From Elusimicrobiota bacterium (GTDB lineage Bacteria; Elusimicrobiota; Elusimicrobia; Elusimicrobiales; Elusimicrobiaceae), in the NCBI GenBank assembly GCA_023393825.1, contig JAEXBW010000012.1, forward strand, positions 1 to 43,805: 43,805 bases of DNA. Direction: 5' to 3'. Made by a program: the position numbers and the translations under genes. This document shows positions 22,856-32,764 of this stretch, piece after piece; the stretch's first letter is position 1; each line of letters starts with the position of its first letter. The notes below the pieces were generated by a model. The model did no database searches, had not been told where the DNA came from, and saw only the letters and a list, made by a program, of their open reading frames with translations.

Positions 22856-25800
22856 ATGAAAAAAACGTTAGTTGTTTTGGTTTCTGTAGTATTTCTTATA
22901 TTGCAGAACACGGCTCCACTTTTTGCAGCAAACGCTGCTAACTGGGCGGAACTGTACAACAATTCAGTCTCTGCCGTCAGCAGCACGTTAACAAATTCGG
23001 TCGTTAGGACCTCGGGAGATCCTGTAGTTGCTTTTCCGTCAGGATACTCTTTATACATAAATGGCGGGTACGGTATTTCCACCGCTGTCGGCGGGACAAT
23101 GTTTTCCATTGCTTCCGGCGGATCGCTTGATCTTGCAACAGGTTCTTATGTAAGCGGCGGGATAGTAAATAACGGTGTATTGTCTTTTTCTAATATATCT
23201 TCTGTTTCCGGCGGGATTTCGGGTTCTGGTTCTTTACATAACTACGCCGCTCTAAGCACAAACGACAATATCTCTCAATCCACATTAACAAACAGCGGAA
23301 ACATAAATAATTACGGCACAATCACAGCGTCCTCTATTCAAAATGGAGGCGTGCTCTCAAGCCGCGCAAACACGCTTTATGGGCTTATCATAAACGGAGG
23401 TACATTAAACCTTACCGGCGGAAGCAACACAAACACTATCCGCAATTCAGCGGGGGATACCGCTTCAGGTACGGTCAATTTTAGCGGCAATTCCGATAAC
23501 AATGCCATTGTCACACAATACGGCGTAACAAACAGCGGCTTTTTAAATAACAATGCCGTAGTTACGGTAAACACGCTGACCAACAATGCCTCCGCTATTT
23601 TAAATAACAATGCTCTTATCACCGCAGGGGGCGTCATCGGAAACGCAGGCACAATTAACACCAATGCCGATTTGCTTTTGGCCTCTTCTGTGGTCAATAG
23701 CGGTGTTGTAAACTTTGAAAGCGGCACAAACAGAAACACAATCGTTAATGCCGCGGGCAATACTTCAGTAGGTACGGTCAACTTTACGGGCAGCACAACG
23801 AACAATGGCACAATTACACAAAACACGGTAAGCAACAGCGGCACATTAACAAACAATGCCGTAATTACCGCAGCTAAAGTTGAAAACTCAGACGTTATCA
23901 TAAACAATTCTTCAATAGTTGGCGCTCTTCGCAACACTGGTACAATTTCCGGCAGCGGCAGTTTAGCGATGACGGGAAACTCCACCAATAACGGTTCAAT
24001 CTCTCAATCGGCATTGTCTAACAGCGGTAACTTTACAAACAACAGTTTAGTTGAACTTACCGGAGTGCTTACCAACTCGGGCACAGTTACCACAAAGGCA
24101 AATTTAGTTACCGCTTCTTCCATAAACAACAGCGGGCAGGTATTTTTTACGGAAGGCATAAACGCTAATGTTATCTCTGGCGCAGGCACAACAAACTTTG
24201 GAGGCGTATCCGTAAATAACGCTTCCGTAGCGCAGGGAACGGTAAACAATACAGGCACATTAACAAGTAATTCCGCAATAAGCGCGGCAACAGCGCTTAA
24301 TAATGCGGGCACTTTAACAAGCAATGCCGCCATCACCGCAGGGGCGGTAACAAACAGCGGAACGTTAAACAATAACGCGTTGCTTTTCGCCTCTTCCATT
24401 GCAAACACGGGCGTATTAAGCAATAATGCTTTATTGCAGTCCGCAACGGGCACCAACAGCGGTACTATTACTTCTTCCACCGCCAATTATGATATCGCAG
24501 CTTTAGCCAATAACGGCACTTTAACATTAACGGGTGCGGGTACATTGGGTTCTTCAGGCGATTCAATAACAGGCACAGGCACAACAACGCTTAATGGCGG
24601 CGTGGGCGGTATTACCAATAATACGGCAATCAGCCAAACAACAGTTAATAACAATGGTGTGTTCAACAACAATGCCTCTGTTTCCGCAACAACGTTTAAT
24701 AACACCAGCTTAGTTTATACAAACGCATCTAACTTATCAGGCACAGTAAACAACAGCGGCACGGTTACCTACACTGGCGGTACACAAGCAGGAGCCTCCA
24801 TAACAGGTACGGGTAATTTAAGCATTAACGGCAACACAATTCTTGCCGGTAATAATACTTACACGGGTGTTACAACCTTAAGCAGCAACCTTTCAATAGG
24901 TGACCAGCGCAATATAGGTACTGGCGATATTCTTTTCTACGGCGGTGTTTTGCAGACAACCTCTGCTGCCGCTTTAGATAATGACCTTACCTCAATAGCA
25001 GGCAACAACGTACAGATACAAAGTCTTGCCGCTTTATCTTTGGGCGGAACTATTACGGGCGCGGATTTTATTAAGAGCGGCGCAGGGGATTTAACCCTTG
25101 CGATGGCTTCCAACGCCTATAATAATACTTTTGTCCAAGCGGGCAAATTGATAGGCACTACCGCTAACATCAACGGTAGCGTAAATGTTTCTTCAGGCGC
25201 AACGGCAGAGTTTACCGATACCGTCACAAACACTTTAAATACCGTTACAGGCAATGGTACGGTATTAAAGAGCGGTAATTCCTTAACCAATGTTACCAAC
25301 AATTTAACGGCAAATACGGTAAACGTAACGGCCGGTAAACTTGCTGTTAACACAGCCAACTACAACGTAGGCACTACCAACATAGGTAATGCTGCTGCAA
25401 TAGGCGGCAATGGCACAATAACAGGTAATGTTAATATTCTCAGCGGCGCTACTCTTGCTCCAGGCAACAGCGTGGACACTATTACGGTTGCAGGTAATTT
25501 GAACCTTGCATCAGGCAGCAATACAACAATTGAAGTTACCAACACTCCTACGGTTGCGGCTGATAAAACAATAGTAACAGGCAATGCCACAATTAACACG
25601 GGCGCAAATCTTGCTGTTGATAATATCGGCAACGACAGGTTTTTTGAATGGAAATCTTTTAATATATTGGAAGCGGCCGGTACTTTAAGCGGCGCATACA
25701 CTTATGACGGCTCTATAAGCAACTATGACTCTTCCAGAATCGGCGGTTCTTTATCTTACGATTACACCAACGGGACAGTAACCCTTTTGGCAAAAAGAAA

Positions 25801-26929
25801 AGCTACAAACTACACAAACACGGTTGCGAATCTTTCGCACAATCAGGCGCAGGCTGCTCAGATTGTTGATAAGATGACAGCAACCAGCCTTACGGGCGAT
25901 ATTACAAACCCGTTGCTCCAGCTTGAAGCTTTGGCAGGTCTTAATCCCCAGGGCATTACGGCTGCAACAGGGGCCACAATCAATTCCGCTCTTGCGGATA
26001 TGGACGGAGTTTTATACGCAAACAGCGCATTAACCTCTCTGTTTAACGCAAAGAGCGCGCATGTATACGACAGAATATCATCAAGAAGAGCCGCACCCGC
26101 AACGGGCTGCCCTACTTGCCACGACAATGTTTGGACTCAGTATTACAATCAGTACAATAAAGTTTATGCTGATTCTAATTCCCCCAGATATACAAACAAT
26201 GTATCAGGCGTAATGGCCGGGTACGACAGATATTCCGAAGATAACTCCTTCCTGTTAGGCGCTTTTGCAGGCAGCAGCAAGGCAGACTTAAGACAATATA
26301 AAGACACCATGGATATCAACGATGTTACCGTTGGCGCATACGGCGGTTATTTAGGTGAAGACTGGACCTTTAAAGGTGTTTTATACATGGGTTATCAAGA
26401 TTATGACGGCAGCAGAAGAATAGCCTTTATGAACAGAACAGCCCACGCTCAGTACGACGGTCACAACATTGCTCTTGACCTTGAAGCGGCTTACAACATC
26501 CCCGTTCTCGCGGGTGTCAACGTAAAGCCCTTTGCAGGTTTACTTAACTCATACTCGCACCAGCAGCACTTTAACGAAACGGGCGCGGATTCCCTTAACC
26601 TGAACGTAGAAAGCAACAATGCTTACAATATTCAGGCAAGACTCGGCGCGCAAGCGGAAGGAAAAGTAAGCAAGTTTAATTGGTACGCCAATATGACGGT
26701 AAAGCAATTCTTAGGCAATGATTACGATAGAATAAACGTCTCTCTCTCCCTGCCTGATACAAAGATGGATATTATCAGCGCCAAGCTGGGTAAAACATAC
26801 TTCAGCAGCGGCGTAGGCCTAAGCTATTCCTTAACGGATAACTTAAATATCTTTGGCAACGGCGAAGCAGGCGTAGGCCGTAAAGCTGCAAACTGCTACG
26901 GCAATATCGGCTTTGCCTATAATTGGTAA
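22856..26929 (+). CDS. Autotransporter (type Va) with a long N/T/S/G-rich beta-helical passenger
   Basis: Signal peptide ...NTAPLFA/AN. Degenerate repeats of the type NSGTLTNNAxITA. Autotransporter-associated beta-strand repeats (GNNTYTGVTTL). The C-terminal beta-barrel domain ends GNIGFAYNW. Confidence 0.9.
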   Translation: MKKTLVVLVSVVFLILQNTAPLFAANAANWAELYNNSVSAVSSTLTNSVVRTSGDPVVAFPSGYSLYINGGYGISTAVGGTMFSIASGGSLDLATGSYVSGGIVNNGVLSFSNISSVSGGISGSGSLHNYAALSTNDNISQSTLTNSGNINNYGTITASSIQNGGVLSSRANTLYGLIINGGTLNLTGGSNTNTIRNSAGDTASGTVNFSGNSDNNAIVTQYGVTNSGFLNNNAVVTVNTLTNNASAILNNNALITAGGVIGNAGTINTNADLLLASSVVNSGVVNFESGTNRNTIVNAAGNTSVGTVNFTGSTTNNGTITQNTVSNSGTLTNNAVITAAKVENSDVIINNSSIVGALRNTGTISGSGSLAMTGNSTNNGSISQSALSNSGNFTNNSLVELTGVLTNSGTVTTKANLVTASSINNSGQVFFTEGINANVISGAGTTNFGGVSVNNASVAQGTVNNTGTLTSNSAISAATALNNAGTLTSNAAITAGAVTNSGTLNNNALLFASSIANTGVLSNNALLQSATGTNSGTITSSTANYDIAALANNGTLTLTGAGTLGSSGDSITGTGTTTLNGGVGGITNNTAISQTTVNNNGVFNNNASVSATTFNNTSLVYTNASNLSGTVNNSGTVTYTGGTQAGASITGTGNLSINGNTILAGNNTYTGVTTLSSNLSIGDQRNIGTGDILFYGGVLQTTSAAALDNDLTSIAGNNVQIQSLAALSLGGTITGADFIKSGAGDLTLAMASNAYNNTFVQAGKLIGTTANINGSVNVSSGATAEFTDTVTNTLNTVTGNGTVLKSGNSLTNVTNNLTANTVNVTAGKLAVNTANYNVGTTNIGNAAAIGGNGTITGNVNILSGATLAPGNSVDTITVAGNLNLASGSNTTIEVTNTPTVAADKTIVTGNATINTGANLAVDNIGNDRFFEWKSFNILEAAGTLSGAYTYDGSISNYDSSRIGGSLSYDYTNGTVTLLAKRKATNYTNTVANLSHNQAQAAQIVDKMTATSLTGDITNPLLQLEALAGLNPQGITAATGATINSALADMDGVLYANSALTSLFNAKSAHVYDRISSRRAAPATGCPTCHDNVWTQYYNQYNKVYADSNSPRYTNNVSGVMAGYDRYSEDNSFLLGAFAGSSKADLRQYKDTMDINDVTVGAYGGYLGEDWTFKGVLYMGYQDYDGSRRIAFMNRTAHAQYDGHNIALDLEAAYNIPVLAGVNVKPFAGLLNSYSHQQHFNETGADSLNLNVESNNAYNIQARLGAQAEGKVSKFNWYANMTVKQFLGNDYDRINVSLSLPDTKMDIISAKLGKTYFSSGVGLSYSLTDNLNIFGNGEAGVGRKAANCYGNIGFAYNW

Positions 26930-26947: not shown

Positions 26948-27478
26948 ATGAAAAATCTTATAATACTTTTTCTCTCTTTAGGTTTAACGGGTTGCTTTAT
27001 ATGCACTAAACAGCTTCCCCCTGCCCCGAAGGAAGAAAAAATTGAAGTAATTGTTATTCAGCCGGAACCCACCCCTGTTATAGAAGAAGTTGTCGCCCCC
27101 GCGCCTAAACCTGCGGTAAACGAAACTTCAATCATCGGCGCGGTTACCTTTGAATCTGATAAAGCGGACTTAAAGGATATGGACCTTGAGGCTTTTGATA
27201 AATTATGTCAATATCTTAAGGAAACTCCCTCCGCGGCATTAGTTATTGAGGGACATACGGATAACAGCGGCACAAATGAACATAACAATGCTCTTTCCTT
27301 GGAAAGGGCGCAAGCCTTGGCAGGTAAATTTGTTGAAGCAGGCGTTACAAACAGTATTGAAGTTTTAAGCTATGGGGCGGACAAGCCCGTAGCTTCAAAC
27401 GATACTGAGGAAGGCCGCTCTGCAAATAGAAGAGTTGATGTTTATATTAAAGCCGCGCAGGAAGCCTCTGCCGAGTAA
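26948..27478 (+). CDS. OmpA-family lipoprotein (peptidoglycan-binding)
   Basis: Lipobox LTGC, a Pro-rich linker, and the OmpA_C motifs FESDKADL, IEGHTDNSGT...NxxLSLERA and NRRVDV. Confidence 0.9.
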   Translation: MKNLIILFLSLGLTGCFICTKQLPPAPKEEKIEVIVIQPEPTPVIEEVVAPAPKPAVNETSIIGAVTFESDKADLKDMDLEAFDKLCQYLKETPSAALVIEGHTDNSGTNEHNNALSLERAQALAGKFVEAGVTNSIEVLSYGADKPVASNDTEEGRSANRRVDVYIKAAQEASAE

Positions 27479-27564: not shown

Positions 27565-28080
27565 CCCGTAGAGGAAAGGCTCCCCTCCTTCCTCTTTAGT
27601 GCAATCTAAACATGCAAAAACATGCCCATAGTCGCGTCTACTATTGCAGATACGATCTTGTCATGTCAACCAAAAACGGCAAGAGAATATTGATATGTGG
27701 ACTATATATAACGCTCCAATATGGACTTAAGAAGTTTGTCCGAAGACATCTTGAGATAAAGTATAGAAGAAATAACTCATGGCAAAAACCATATTCATAT
27801 TTTAATATCGATGCCACCGAAACTTAGTATAAGTGAGGTGATAAGACTATTAAAATGCAGTACAAGCAGAGAAATAAGGAACAAGTTCAAATTTCTGGAT
27901 ACAATATATTTTGATAGTGATGGTATTTGGTCAGAATGATATTTTATATCAACAGCCGGAATAGATGGATCCGCCGTGAGGAAAGATATAGAAGAGCAAC
28001 GGCAATAAGAGTAAGGGCAAACAGCAACGTTGTTTGAGCTTTAATAAAAATCCCCGTCGGGCGTAATGCCGAACGGGGAT
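27565..28080 (+). mobile_element. Decayed IS200/IS605-family element (Y1 transposase remnant with hairpins near both ends)
   Basis: Imperfect hairpin at 27571-27594 upstream and an 8-bp-stem hairpin ATCCCCGT...ACGGGGAT at 28050-28080 downstream of the tnpA remnant. Confidence 0.6.
27612..28008 (+). pseudogene. tnpA: IS200-type tnpA pseudogene (frameshift plus in-frame stops)
   Basis: Recognisable blocks are spread over two frames: HAHSRVYYCRYDLVMSTKNGKRIL, then HIHILISMPPKLSISEVIRLLKCSTSREIRNKF, then GIWSE*YFISTAGIDGSAVRKDIEEQ. Confidence 0.75.
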
Positions 28081-28360
28081 TTTTATTGTTATTTTATAAA
28101 TAAATGGCGGAGATTTCAGTATTAACAGCAACCTTCTCTAAAGCTGGGGTAATTTGTTGAGATGATTTTGCGGTTATTTTTTATTTGGTGCAACGAAGTG
28201 CGATGGCGCACCCCCAGTATATCGTGATCGGGCGGAGCCCCACATATATGAGTGAAACAGAAAATAAAAAAGAGCCGCTGCGGTGTGCTTCACACCAAAA
28301 GGGCTCAAAAAACGGAGTACGAAGGAAGATTAGCTCAATGTTGTAGTTTATTATTGGCAA

Positions 28361-28482
28361 CTTCCCGTGAAACAGCGAATTTACAGGGAAAATTAGCGTT
28401 TTTTGCTATTTTAAGCTGATTTTTCAGGCAAGTTCACCTATACGGCGATAAGAAATTCCCTATAAAAAATAACAGCGAATTA
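28361..28482. repeat. Paired-hairpin module, locus B
   Basis: AACAGCGAATTTACAGGGAAAAT at the left and AAATTCCCTATAAAAAATAACAGCGAATT at the right. AACAGCGAATT recurs exactly 100 bp apart (28371 and 28471). Homologous to 9821-9965. Confidence 0.7.
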
Positions 28483-28804
28483 TATTTTTGTTTCAAGGAT
28501 TTAATTTCTTTTAACAGACAAATAATATAAACATAAAATGATTATTATTTTAACTGAGATAGTCTCTATTTTGTTAAAAATATAAAACTTTATTAATTAT
28601 AACTAAAATATTAAAAGTTTATTATTATTAGTTTTAAAAATCACATTCAAAATTTTCGCCAAGCGCATTTAGTCTTCCATTCACCTCAGCCACATAAAAT
28701 GCAAACGGATCAAATTCTTCACAATCCTCTTCTTCCCAACATAACCAATCTTTATAATCTTCTTTTTCTTGTGATACCTTGCCTTTTATTACTTCTATAA
28801 AATT

Positions 28805-30016
28805 TTATAACTCTATGCCTTGGTTCTTTAGTTGGTTTGCGATATCTAATAGCTCGTTAATTTTTTCTTTATAATATGTCAAAGCGGCATTATCTTCATT
28901 AAATAGATATTTTACGGTCTCTAATTCCCAAAATCTAAAACTATCAATACGGTATATTAACGGCCACCAGGGGGTCTGCTCGGCGCCGAAGTTATTTTTT
29001 ATACCGGTTCTTATGTGATTATTATCTGTTTTATCGCTTAAAAAGCGAAAGCCGTAAATACCGGTATTGCCCTCTAAATTAAAGCAAAGGCAGATTTTCT
29101 TCCACTCAGGTATATTTATGCGGAATCCAGATAGACCTTGATCATTCGATATGGTTTCCATTTGTATATAGGTATTCCGTTCTTTTAAAAATACCTCAAG
29201 AGGTTGTAGCAATCGGTTTATGATGACGTTGTTCTTCGCTTCTTTCAGATTACTAAATACATCTACTGCGCCAGAAAAACTTTCTTTATCTTTTATTAAA
29301 ATATCTATTATTTCTTTGGTCATTTCCGGGTTTCTCCCTTGTCCTGTTAAATCTTTTATGAGTAGAATGTATTGCTTAATAGCCATTGATATAAATGATG
29401 ACTCCTTGGATACGGCTAGGCATTTCTCCAGCCACTTTAAAATGTGTTTTTGATAGGACATAGGATAGTATTTTTTGGACAAACTCCATAAGCTGTCCTT
29501 CGTGGCATCCTTTCCGTTCATTGTCAGGTAAATTATTTCTGCATCTGGACACGCTTTATTATACCTGTATAATTGTTTGGGCTGATCACCGGCGTATATT
29601 ACCTTATTTTCTATCACAAGCTGCTTTTTGCCACTTTTTATAAAAATATCTATACGGCCGCCGCTTTCATAGTCTTTACTGACTGGACCTATGTATTTTT
29701 CGGTCTCCACCTGTACAGTACCATCTGAGAAGCCTGAGAAATATGATTCTAATTCTTTATACTCCTCCTGCAGCGTTTCCAAAAATAACTTTAAAAATTG
29801 ATTATTATTTTCGGGGCTTGTTTGTGAATCCAGAAGCCTAGATATAAAATAGGAGTGGAGTAACTCTTTCTCGTAGTCCGTTTTACCTATCGCATAGAAG
29901 ATATTCCAATTTTCGCCGGCAAGGGCGGATTTTTCATCATACTTATGCCTAATGGTGGAAAGTTGTTTAAGGATATTTCCCAACACAACTTCTGTATTAT
30001 TAAATTCTGTGTTCAT
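28805..30016 (-). CDS. PD-(D/E)XK nuclease family protein (PDDEXK_4-like architecture)
   Basis: N-terminal block NIFYAIGKTDYEKELLHSYFISRLLD. Catalytic core GGRIDIFI...LVIENKVIYAGDQPKQLYRY (D...ExK plus QLxRY). The C-terminal half, about 200 aa, is of unknown function. Confidence 0.8.
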   Translation of the reverse strand: MNTEFNNTEVVLGNILKQLSTIRHKYDEKSALAGENWNIFYAIGKTDYEKELLHSYFISRLLDSQTSPENNNQFLKLFLETLQEEYKELESYFSGFSDGTVQVETEKYIGPVSKDYESGGRIDIFIKSGKKQLVIENKVIYAGDQPKQLYRYNKACPDAEIIYLTMNGKDATKDSLWSLSKKYYPMSYQKHILKWLEKCLAVSKESSFISMAIKQYILLIKDLTGQGRNPEMTKEIIDILIKDKESFSGAVDVFSNLKEAKNNVIINRLLQPLEVFLKERNTYIQMETISNDQGLSGFRINIPEWKKICLCFNLEGNTGIYGFRFLSDKTDNNHIRTGIKNNFGAEQTPWWPLIYRIDSFRFWELETVKYLFNEDNAALTYYKEKINELLDIANQLKNQGIEL

Positions 30017-30070
30017 ATATGCTCATTATTATTCTTAATGGTGCCTACAGATATATTTTACATATTGAAG

Positions 30071-30088
30071 GCGACATATGCCTGTCGC
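30071..30088. promoter_or_regulatory. Palindrome GCGACA-TATGCC-TGTCGC between the WYL gene stop and the nuclease gene
   Basis: Perfect 6-bp arms that abut the WYL stop codon (30089-30091). The core CGACA-N6-TGTCG is the same as at 31030-31047. Confidence 0.5.
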
Positions 30089-31012
30089 TTAATTTATATT
30101 TTCTAAATATTTATTTATCTTTTTCTTTATATCTTCTGCCAAATTTTGTGGAGATATAACTTTTATATATGGTATCCAATGTAAAATTATGGGTGTTATT
30201 TCCAGAAATCTAGCCGCCTGACAGGTTATTATCAAGCTGCCATCCTTCTTTTCTTTTTCCATTTTTTGCAGAGGAAAATATTCTTTGTTTTTGAAATATC
30301 CTGCTATTTCTCTAGATATCACCATTTTTACTTCAATATTTCTACTCTCTTCAAACCATATGTTTACACTTTCCTGGATAATCTTATTTATATTGCCTGC
30401 ATATTCAAAGTGCACATCCGACGGACTTGCTTTAGTTATTTGCTCTAAGCGAAATTTCAGAAGATATCCTTGTGTGCCAACAGCCAATAAGTACCAAAAA
30501 CCTTCATACCATGCTATTTTGAGAGGCTTAAGCTTATAATATCCAGGTTTTGCACCACCAACATAATAGATACTAAGTATTTCTTTATTTTTTATTGTGG
30601 TTTCTATTGTTCTGGTAATATCAGTGGATGCATATCGTGTCCCTGCCGGTATTTTTATAAAGAACGGATTGTCTTCATGTATGTTTATAAATTTCTTCTG
30701 GAGCGAGGAAAATGATTTAGAAAAATCTCTGCCGAGTGCGCCCGCAGTTTCAGATATGAAAACAAGTAAAGCGGCTTCTTTATCAGAAATTTTCATTTTA
30801 CTTAAAGAGAAATTTCTCTCAAATGCGTATAAACCGGGTTTTGGGCAGTATAATGGGAAGCCCGCATAATCTATTGATTTAACATCACGTTGCAGGGTAC
30901 GAGAGGAAACTCCCAAGCTTTCAGCCTGTTTGGCTAGGTTTATAGTTCCGCTATCTAACTCATTAAGAAGATATAAAATACGGGTTATTTTATTCCGCAT
31001 TTCTTTATTCAT
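30089..31012 (-). CDS. WYL-domain transcriptional regulator (wHTH-WYL-WCX architecture)
   Basis: HTH region LGVSSRTLQRDVKSI. WYL domain ILSIYYVGGAKPGYYKLKPLKIAWYEGFWYLLAV. I prefer the ATG at 31012 (GGAG 6 nt upstream) over the TTG at 31024. Confidence 0.85.
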   Translation of the reverse strand: MNKEMRNKITRILYLLNELDSGTINLAKQAESLGVSSRTLQRDVKSIDYAGFPLYCPKPGLYAFERNFSLSKMKISDKEAALLVFISETAGALGRDFSKSFSSLQKKFINIHEDNPFFIKIPAGTRYASTDITRTIETTIKNKEILSIYYVGGAKPGYYKLKPLKIAWYEGFWYLLAVGTQGYLLKFRLEQITKASPSDVHFEYAGNINKIIQESVNIWFEESRNIEVKMVISREIAGYFKNKEYFPLQKMEKEKKDGSLIITCQAARFLEITPIILHWIPYIKVISPQNLAEDIKKKINKYLENIN

Positions 31013-31029
31013 ACAAGACTCCAAAGTGT

Positions 31030-31047
31030 CCGACAGTATGTTGTCGG
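31030..31047. promoter_or_regulatory. Palindrome CCGACA-GTATGT-TGTCGG in the divergent WYL / 31102 promoter region
   Basis: Perfect 6-bp arms, 18 nt upstream of the WYL ATG. It shares CGACA-N6-TGTCG with 30071-30088. Confidence 0.5.
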
Positions 31048-31101
31048 GTATCTAAATTATACTTTAATATATCTCAAAAAACATAAATGGAGGAGTCATA
31101 A

Positions 31102-32118
31102 ATGTGGATTAACCCTTGCCAATCAAAAGGAACGGAATATTTAGAAGATACGCGCTCTCAAATACGATCTGTCAGGAAGAGGATTAAAGATAAAAGAAGT
31201 AAAAAATGGCTCATATTTAATAAATATATAAAATACAATAAAAATGGGGACGTATCATTAGAAAAAACATTCTTCCCAGACAAAGAATCTTCGTTAAAAT
31301 ATAAATATAATCAGGCGGGGCAATGTATAGAATACACGGAGGAAAGTTCTTGTGGTTCTTTTAAACGTTCGTTGCGTGAAATTGATGAGAATGGCAATGA
31401 TAGTTATTCTTATTTCTTTAGGCTTGACCCCAAAAAAGGACCATATGGTAGCGTCTCTATCAACACGTTTGATAAAAAAGGACGTAAAATAGATACTGAT
31501 ACTTATTTTGCTGATGGAGGATATACGAAGCATAAATATTTTTATAGAAATAATACAAAAGTAGCATTTATATATAACTCTCTGGGCAAAATTACAGCCA
31601 AATATAAGCTAAGAGGCAAAAACAACTCTTTTGCAGACTCTATTAATGAGAGTGTTTATTTTATTGGCAAAAGAATTGAAAGAAGTTATAGCGAACAGAA
31701 ATGTAAATATGACTCCGGAGGTTATAAAATTTTAGAAAAATCAAGATGGGTTAGTAGCGACTCAAGGCAAGGATCACCCAATATATATTTAAATAAAACA
31801 CAAAGAAAAACCGAAATAAAATATAAATATGATAAAGCTGGTAATCTTGTACAGAAGTACTATTATAACGACGGAAAAATACACAGTAAAGACATTATCA
31901 CCCATGAAACGACAATTGAGCATGGGAAGAGAGTTTGCATTAGGTGTGAGGATTGCTATCAGTGTGGAAAAATAGTTTTTAGAGCAATTTGCAAACATGA
32001 AAATTTTGATAAAAAGGGAAATTGGGGAATAGAAACCACATCTTTGGAAAAAATTGAACACAATAAGACTTCTATTTTATGTTTTCATAAAGAAGAAAGA
32101 AAAATCCAATACCGTTAG
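31102..32118 (+). CDS. Hypothetical cytoplasmic protein with YD/RHS-like hairpin repeats and a C-terminal Cys cluster
   Basis: SD GGAGGAG upstream and no signal peptide. Repeats: KYKYNQAGQCIEY, TFDKKGRKIDTDTYF, KYKYDKAGNLVQKYYYNDGK and NFDKKGNWGIE. CIRCEDCYQC lies near the C-terminus. Confidence 0.6.
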   Translation: MWINPCQSKGTEYLEDTRSQIRSVRKRIKDKRSKKWLIFNKYIKYNKNGDVSLEKTFFPDKESSLKYKYNQAGQCIEYTEESSCGSFKRSLREIDENGNDSYSYFFRLDPKKGPYGSVSINTFDKKGRKIDTDTYFADGGYTKHKYFYRNNTKVAFIYNSLGKITAKYKLRGKNNSFADSINESVYFIGKRIERSYSEQKCKYDSGGYKILEKSRWVSSDSRQGSPNIYLNKTQRKTEIKYKYDKAGNLVQKYYYNDGKIHSKDIITHETTIEHGKRVCIRCEDCYQCGKIVFRAICKHENFDKKGNWGIETTSLEKIEHNKTSILCFHKEERKIQYR

Positions 32119-32686: not shown

Positions 32687-32764
32687 TGGCGGAGTCAACG
32701 GGATTCGAACCCGCGGTCTCTGCCTTGACAGGGCAGCGTGTTAACCAGGCTACACCATGACTCC
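32687..32764 (-). tRNA. tRNA-Asp (anticodon GTC), CCA encoded
   Basis: Hand-folded cloverleaf: acceptor GGAGTCA/TGACTCC, D stem GTGT/ACAC, anticodon stem CTGCC/GGCAG with loop CTGTCAA, T arm GCGGG-TTCGAAT-CCCGT, discriminator G, CCA. Confidence 0.9.

Follow-up and report, generated by a model that had tools for sequence, protein, structure and literature searches.

A WYL-domain protein of an Elusimicrobiota bacterium as candidate activator of a PDC-S26 nuclease through a palindrome in place of the -35 element

The subject of this analysis is a pair of minus-strand genes in a 43,805-nt stretch of DNA from an Elusimicrobiota bacterium (contig JAEXBW010000012.1, the whole of which is referred to as the window), in which a gene for a WYL-domain transcription factor is followed after 72 nt by a gene for a PD-(D/E)XK nuclease, and a palindrome of the form CGACA-N6-TGTCG lies upstream of each. 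Judged by comparison across related loci, this palindrome is a lineage-wide operator that forms part of a composite promoter without a -35 element. The reading favoured here, with moderate confidence, is that the WYL protein acts as a homodimer and activates transcription under the control of single-stranded DNA (ssDNA), replacing the missing -35 at palindrome-N11-(-10) promoters. A dimer loaded with ssDNA arising from DNA damage or phage replication would bind at the -35 location and let the housekeeping RNA polymerase start at promoters that are otherwise unusable. In the window, the palindrome at 30071-30088 together with TAAAAT would drive the nuclease gene, and the palindrome at 31030-31047 together with TATACT would drive the divergent orphan gene at 31102, with both genes being switched on after DNA damage or phage attack. 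Together with its operator and -10, the nuclease gene would form a self-contained cassette that moves horizontally, and this cassette could have landed directly behind the regulator gene and be switched on by the regulator in trans; once induced, the nuclease would likely cut invading or damaged DNA. The two genes and their palindromes had been pointed out in an earlier reading of the window made from its letters alone (the sequence-only reading), and the coordinates, the gap between the genes and the palindrome positions given there are all correct.

That the palindrome is a real operator is seen first from its distribution. Within the window, CGACA-N6-TGTCG with at most one mismatch occurs in two places only, where 0.23 are expected and 4 of 100 shuffled sequences reached two, and the same two sites alone are found when an in-register -10 is also demanded (shuffle mean 0.375); chance is excluded as an explanation for the two occurrences. 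The exact motif is present 103 times in 765 kb around 85 loci of the WYL clade but is absent from the 1.03 Mb of sequence around nuclease genes of other phyla, making the two palindromes of the sequence-only reading instances of an operator shared within the clade. These sites are predominantly intergenic (91 of 107) and located no more than 250 nt upstream of a gene start (92 of 107). Their register with respect to the -10 is fixed: of the 198 half-site flanks, 105 contain TAnnnT at offset 11, and every other offset accounts for 1-25 cases, mostly fewer than 10; an in-register TAnnnT is present on at least one side of 87 of the 99 non-redundant sites. From the 108 non-redundant in-register promoters the consensus gCGACA..a.gtTGTCGc-N10-TAtacT was derived; their best match to a -35 hexamer is 1-3 of 6 bases, and 43 of them have TGn before the -10. 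The site therefore has the placement known from operators of WYL activators: its spacing to the -10 is constant, and it takes the position of the -35, of which there is no hexamer. This absence is meaningful because the promoter of the tRNA-Asp gene of the same organism is a normal TTGACT-17-TAGAAT, from which it follows that the organism uses ordinary -35/-10 promoters as well. At 18 of the 99 sites -10 boxes lie on both sides (L004 5406, L007 5825, L091 843 and L092 7951 are among them), and at such double-sided sites one palindrome may drive two divergent promoters. When viral contigs were searched with the composite pattern, at least 120 matches came back, approximately the number expected by chance from a pattern with 14 fixed bases according to a rough, uncomputed estimate, and the result is therefore uninformative.

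Each of the two window sites has an in-register -10 directed toward one gene, the nuclease gene in one case and the divergent gene at 31102 in the other, in agreement with the earlier proposal that these two are likely targets. The accompanying statement that the same palindrome lies upstream of both the WYL and the nuclease gene holds for the positions, and the promoter register of the 31030 site belongs to the divergent gene and not to the WYL gene. On its WYL side this site has no in-register -10. A TATAAT at 31061-31056, read with some uncertainty as a -10 of the WYL gene, would set the operator at approximately +1 to +25 of the WYL transcript, and the 71%-identical homologue in L003 has the same arrangement of TATAAT and operator; in most other members of the clade the WYL gene has an in-register promoter of its own. 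Because an in-register -10 is missing here and the site lies between the putative -10 and the ribosome-binding site, expression of the WYL gene is probably constitutive or negatively autoregulated.

The operator is also kept with the nuclease in the three closest nuclease homologues checked. Upstream of the nuclease gene, L002 has CGACAGACAGCTGTCG-gacattatatg-TACAAT-...AGGAGG-ATG, L171 has CGACAGACATTTGTCG-gccattatatg-TAAAAT and L001, with one mismatch, has TGACAGACATATGTCG-cccttaatatg-TAAAAT, all visibly homologous to positions 30055-30088 of the window. The palindrome at the WYL stop codon is therefore the left edge of the promoter of the nuclease cassette and not a feature of the WYL gene, and these upstream sequences show an operator-promoter that appears to travel with the nuclease gene even where no WYL gene is adjacent. 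It is accordingly highly improbable that the hairpin at 30071-30088 serves only to end WYL transcription, or is simply a dispersed repeat, and takes no part in regulation. The hairpin does abut the stop codon and a consensus scan flags a terminator-like site, though on the plus (antisense) strand, but the sense strand has no U-tract, no more than 4 bp of the stem are formed in the predicted RNA fold (z = -1.67), and sequences of this class always lie upstream of genes with an in-register -10, including the nuclease genes of L001, L002 and L171, none of which is preceded by the end of a WYL gene. A role solely as terminator, which the sequence-only reading had itself raised, was rejected on account of the weak stem and the missing U-tract.

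The regulator matches the Pfam families HTH_11, WYL and WCX, each above its cut-off, and the domains had been correctly called from the sequence alone for this protein as well as for the nuclease (PDDEXK_4). It is a winged helix-turn-helix (wHTH)-WYL-WCX protein of the YafY/PafBC superfamily, whose AlphaFold2 (AF2) model matches DriD, PafBC, CapW and BrxR with probability 1.0. Searched by sequence against the PDB, the window protein finds DriD only (E 7e-7), and the profile of the clade, at E<=10, finds DriD followed by PafC and PafBC; BrxR and CapW are not found by this profile in the PDB even at that threshold. Foldseek places DriD first (4e-14), followed by PafC/PafBC, CapW (8e-9) and BrxR (7e-8). 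The protein is thus closest to DriD and PafC, which are activators, and falls outside the BrxR-CapW cluster both by sequence and by structure. Residues R38 and R42 of the recognition helix are invariant in an alignment of 20 clade members, align with the RRTAER segment of DriD and have as equivalents R46/R50 of PafB and R38/R42 of SiwR, giving the protein the pair of GTC-reading arginines (i, i+4) that is found in the recognition helix of WYL activators. Most likely, it acts as a homodimer and belongs with DriD, PafBC, SiwR and DdaA among the wHTH-WYL-WCX transcription factors. A total of 559 homologues were found, the closest being 45-71% identical, and the named ones among the closest come from Elusimicrobiota ('Ca. 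Avelusimicrobium', 'Endomicrobia'). The genes that follow these homologues are unrelated to one another.

Among the characterized WYL activators, PafBC has a matching promoter design. Its promoters follow tGTCgg(N10)tA(N3)T, lack a -35, contain what is called a '-26 element' and are switched on by 'sigma adaptation' (PMC8635444). The promoters of the window clade have the same half-site and spacing, TGTCG(c)-N10-TA-N3-T, and likewise no -35, and both proteins combine wHTH, WYL and WCX domains with an RxxxR motif in the recognition helix. PafBC, a heterodimer, recognizes a non-palindromic site and controls approximately 150 DNA-repair genes, whereas the site of the window clade is a full palindrome, implying a homodimer, is apparently bidirectional in the 18 double-sided cases, and has known targets that are local and largely of defence type. 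SiwR of M. smegmatis is a homodimeric WYL activator with a palindrome at the -26 region, and its R38A/R42A exchange abolishes DNA binding (PMC10693628). It resembles the window protein as a homodimeric activator of adjacent genes whose essential arginines are the invariant positions of the window clade, and differs in its DinB-like targets, its phylum and its motif. DriD binds ATACGAC-N7-GTCGTAT, which overlaps the -35 position at a fixed distance to the -10, and at the divergent region of driD the DriD complex faces the neighbouring operon (PMC13004042). As the closest solved relative of the window protein by sequence and fold, DriD exemplifies a homodimer whose palindromic site, with the core CGAC/GTCG, overlaps the -35 position, and its activation of the neighbouring operon rather than of itself at its own divergent region parallels the site at 31030-31047. 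The core of its operator is CGAC-N7-GTCG versus CGAC-N8-GTCG in the window clade, the identity is only approximately 20%, and the DriD regulon consists of cell division and repair genes.

The DdaA protein of Acinetobacter binds CGWCA-N5-TGWCG and activates DNA-damage genes, restriction-modification (RM) and CRISPR-Cas (PMC12392091). This regulator of the Moraxellaceae is similar to the proposed activator in having nearly equal half-sites (CGWCA/TGWCG), in being a homodimer and in activating defence systems upon DNA damage. All 103 sites of the window clade have a spacer of N6 instead of N5 and thus depart from the published DdaA motif, and DdaA is a global regulator that replaces SOS. Palindromes of the DdaA type are present upstream of WYL genes located beside PDC-S26 nucleases, the family to which the window nuclease is assigned below: CCGTCA-TATTT-TGACGG in L030, CGACA-CATTT-TGTCG in the Bacteroidota locus L033 and GGTCA-TTTTT-TGACC in L085. 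A Bacteroidetes-type -7 box (TAnnTTTG-like) lies 11 nt after the palindrome in two of these loci, L030 and L085, and by eye the geometry of palindrome and -10 seems common across phyla.

The sequence-only reading had instead assumed repression of the BrxR/CapW type, in which a dimer on both palindromes would block the polymerase until ssDNA or another signal de-represses the WYL, nuclease and divergent genes. WYL repressors that bind inverted repeats in two boxes, in front of the regulator gene and of the defence system respectively, are known from defence loci (PMC9122601), and CapW senses ssDNA (PMC11662680). The window locus shares with these proteins the domain architecture, a position beside diverse defence genes and the two operator boxes, its cargo is a potentially toxic nuclease, and the 31030 site, between TATAAT and the WYL ribosome-binding site, is in a roadblock position. 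Repression of this type is nevertheless considered unlikely. BrxR represses sterically from 11-bp inverted repeats downstream of the -10 (PMC9122601), and a placement of this kind fits the WYL side of 31030-31047 only, not the two in-register target promoters, which have no -35 and carry the operator in its place at an invariant 11 nt from the -10, as do promoters of the activators PafBC, SiwR and DriD. Furthermore, the half-site and spacing equal those of the PafBC activator motif, the clade profile retrieves DriD and PafC and not BrxR or CapW, and the latter two rank last by fold, as the WYL structures most distant from the window protein.

Several points weigh against the favoured reading all the same. 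A repressor with an operator overlapping the -35 region would yield identical site positions, and the binding of the sites by the protein, ssDNA as the inducing signal, the direction in which transcription is changed and the function of the nuclease are all inferred. The nuclease promoter has no TGn extension and the ribosome-binding site of the nuclease gene is weak, and the WYL gene of the window departs from the self-promoter layout that is usual in its clade. Several WYL homologues of 38-45% identity have no exact motif nearby, and specificity therefore varies within the clade. As the loci are related, the motif counts are not fully independent, and the regulon defined by the motif includes TPR proteins, an outer-membrane beta-barrel protein and PAD_porph, none of which look like defence genes.

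The nuclease matches Pfam PDDEXK_4 over residues 38-217 (E 2.3e-27) and the PADLOC model PDC-S26 (PDLC04980) with E 2.8e-80, with residues 13-397 aligned to positions 7-386 of the 389 in the model. By this profile match it is a full-length member of a catalogued single-gene candidate for phage defence, which bears out its description as a defence candidate from the sequence alone; the accompanying remark, that no named system with exactly this pairing was known to the reader, does not hold for the nuclease family, which is already named. The peptide blocks quoted there are present and the D/E/K core is intact, with the catalytic D123, E136 and K138 being invariant in an alignment of 29 homologues, in which the N-terminal G34/N38/H54-S55 block is also kept. 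In the AF2 model (predicted local distance difference test score 85.6), strands at 102-108, 121-128, 131-138 and 159-165 place these residues as the D...(D/E)xK signature on the alpha-beta-beta-beta-alpha-beta core of PD-(D/E)XK enzymes. Foldseek with this model returns weak matches, solely to generic PD-(D/E)XK domains, and no solved structural relative was found by sequence in the PDB. PDC-S26 is among the commonest defence systems of Enterobacterales pipolins (PMC11551731); a literature search found no published functional study of the family. The window gene resembles other PDC-S26 genes in its full-length match to the hidden Markov model and its defence-island context, and differs from this family of mostly solitary genes in carrying a predicted promoter that depends on a WYL activator.

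The neighbourhoods of the nuclease homologues do not support the compact WYL-nuclease module envisaged in the sequence-only reading. The L001 nuclease is 89% identical and lies 3 kb away from the WYL gene, in a region that also contains GmrSD, dynamin-like GTPases, a pair of S8 peptidase and AAA genes and a type III RM system. The L002 nuclease (46% identical) adjoins Cas9-Cas1-Cas2 and the L171 nuclease (48% identical) adjoins AbiEii, and no WYL gene lies within 8 kb of either. None of the three nuclease genes therefore has a WYL gene as its direct neighbour. A nuclease gene directly behind the WYL gene is found in 1 of the 60 clade loci with downstream sequence, that of the window alone, and a conserved two-gene module was rejected from these gene contexts; the conserved adjacency that an obligate two-gene system would show is not seen. 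Among 79 nuclease loci from GTDB genomes of other phyla, mostly Bacteroidota, approximately 20 have a WYL-like open reading frame (ORF) within +/-8 kb and approximately 75% have none; the WYL ORF is co-directional within 1 kb in 10 and within 100 nt in 4. With these frequencies, the pairing of WYL regulator and nuclease is recurrent, yet facultative. In the Bacteroidota loci L030, L042, L047, L053, L025 and L065, some of them from Flavobacterium, a gene with a DEDDh (DnaQ-like) exonuclease motif, identified by eye from the translations as …HHDALSDA…, lies beside or between the WYL and PDC-S26 genes, which suggests a recurrent arrangement of three genes in this phylum.

The genes that follow the motif across the lineage appear from their annotation to form a mixed regulon that is clearly rich in defence candidates. 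Recurrent among them are the WYL gene itself, a double-AAA ATPase of 600-670 aa, DUF2779/Cas4-like nucleases and a protein of 134-155 aa encoded divergently from the WYL gene, together with FtsA-like, TPR and PAD_porph genes. The variable part comprises genes with PADLOC models, namely PDC-S01 (L101), PDC-S23/S05 (L130), AbiEi, IetA-like AAA ATPases and PDC-M72A, and the AbiEii gene of L171 has a motif site of its own. GmrSD has no motif of its own; in L001 it begins 9 nt 3' of a 58%-identical WYL gene that is motif-driven, and the two look operonic from their spacing. Apart from the WYL gene, the most constant member of the regulon is the double-AAA ATPase, which has two PF00004 domains and is IetA/TRIP13-like in PADLOC; sites lie upstream of the 600-670-aa AAA genes at L001 4829, at L006 2970, in L096/L097/L098 and in L089, and the L001 gene is the first of four in a minus-strand cluster, an acetyltransferase gene being among them. 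A tblastn search of 0.88 Mb of clade loci with E. coli queries found no recA, ruvB or ssb. The sole find among RecA, LexA, RuvB and SSB is a LexA-like (S24 peptidase) ORF at 4138-4644 of L159, located 1.7 kb downstream of a gene of the WYL clade, and some members of the lineage may thus also have an SOS-type repressor.

A different assignment of function would place the WYL protein at the head of a local DNA-damage regulon, with the nuclease as a repair or processing enzyme and not an anti-phage effector. DriD, PafBC, SiwR and DdaA all control DNA-damage genes, PD-(D/E)XK nucleases are common in repair, and the recurrent targets include a DnaB_C/KaiC-like ATPase as well as the Cas4-like DUF2779 nucleases and the double-AAA ATPase. 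This assignment is distinctly improbable for the nuclease, whose family is patchily distributed and located in the defence islands described above for L001 (GmrSD, S8 and AAA, type III RM), L002 (Cas9-Cas1-Cas2) and L171 (AbiEii). It matches PDC-S26, and its surroundings in the window are a low-GC islet with a tRNA gene and an insertion sequence (IS) remnant close by.

If the WYL protein is the activator proposed here, the inducible regulation of immunity by activators of the WYL type, for which DdaA in the Moraxellaceae has been the case shown to date, would extend to a distant and little-studied phylum, with the promoter logic of mycobacterial PafBC. The uncharacterized PDC-S26 family would gain a concrete regulatory context, and the pattern gCGACA-N6-TGTCGc-N10-TAnnnT could be scanned in genomes of the lineage to retrieve the whole regulon and with it candidate genes for defence or repair. 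A wider reading, put forward only tentatively, is that horizontally acquired defence genes of this Elusimicrobia-type lineage carry a portable palindrome-N11-(-10) promoter that plugs into one resident ssDNA-sensing WYL activator, as a PafBC-like replacement of the -35 outside the Actinobacteria that often works in both directions from one palindrome. PDC-S26, PDC-S01, PDC-S23/S05 and AbiE-type genes would be examples, with GmrSD placed instead behind a promoter-bearing WYL gene. Were this the case, the operator would serve as a direct handle for new immune genes, and the 338-aa orphan at 31102, the operons of the double-AAA ATPase and the DUF2779 nucleases would be candidates.

The features of the locus are listed in Table 1. 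The stretch with the nuclease, WYL and orphan genes has a GC content of 0.32-0.36 versus 0.42-0.47 in its flanks, and the exact WYL protein occurs on seven contigs, with the same gene arrangement in the three, from three samples, that were read in detail.

Table 1. Coordinates of genes, operators and predicted promoter elements in the window
Feature	Position	Strand	Remarks
Operator 1, CCGACA-GTATGT-TGTCGG	31030..31047		Between WYL and divergent genes; 18 nt before WYL ATG
Operator 2, GCGACA-TATGCC-TGTCGC	30071..30088		Abuts WYL stop codon (30089-30091); upstream element of nuclease promoter
Predicted -10 of nuclease promoter, TAAAAT	30055..30060	minus	11 nt after TGTCG (30076-30072); predicted start ~30048; from register analysis
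Predicted -10 of divergent gene, TATACT	31058..31063	plus	11 nt after TGTCG (31042-31046); predicted start ~31070; from register analysis
Possible -10 of WYL gene, TATAAT	31056..31061	minus	Overlaps plus-strand -10; uncertain; from sequence reading
PD-(D/E)XK nuclease gene	28805..30016	minus	403 aa; Pfam PDDEXK_4, PADLOC candidate PDC-S26
HTH-WYL-WCX transcription factor gene	30089..31012	minus	307 aa; ATG after GGAG; recognition-helix R38, R42
Divergent orphan gene	31102..32118	plus	338 aa; faint YD/RHS-repeat similarity; second predicted target
tRNA-Asp	32687..32764	minus	Right edge of low-GC islet
tRNA-Asp promoter	32813-32785	minus	Canonical TTGACT-17-TAGAAT
IS200-like Y1 transposase gene fragment	27790..27936	plus	Pfam Y1_Tnp E 8.2e-10; left side of islet

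The RHS/YD matches of the 338-aa protein encoded at 31102 are all below threshold, and searches of two collections, one of 5.8 billion proteins and one of 1.84 billion representatives, returned no homologues beyond the protein itself and one marginal match. The transposase remnant on the left of the islet is frameshifted and extends more widely over 27612-28006; the approximately 0.8 kb that follow it (28006-28805) are without a convincing gene, and beside the IS200-type fragment approximately 1.3 kb on this side of the islet have none. A search around the islet for att-like direct repeats gave none that were convincing. Beyond the TAA of the nuclease gene, its frame continues on the minus strand for 54 sense codons (28640-28801), in which the first ATG, GTG or TTG does not occur before codon 39. 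The encoded peptide (…DWLCWEEEDCEEFDPFAFYVAEVNGRL…) is identical in contigs of the same species, has no Pfam match and none in the other loci, and may represent an extension made by readthrough, what is left of a gene, or chance. Immediately to the left of the islet, and unrelated to the WYL regulator and the nuclease, the plus strand encodes a 1357-aa autotransporter with long repeats rich in Asn, Thr and Ser (22856-26929) and an OmpA-family lipoprotein (26948-27478).

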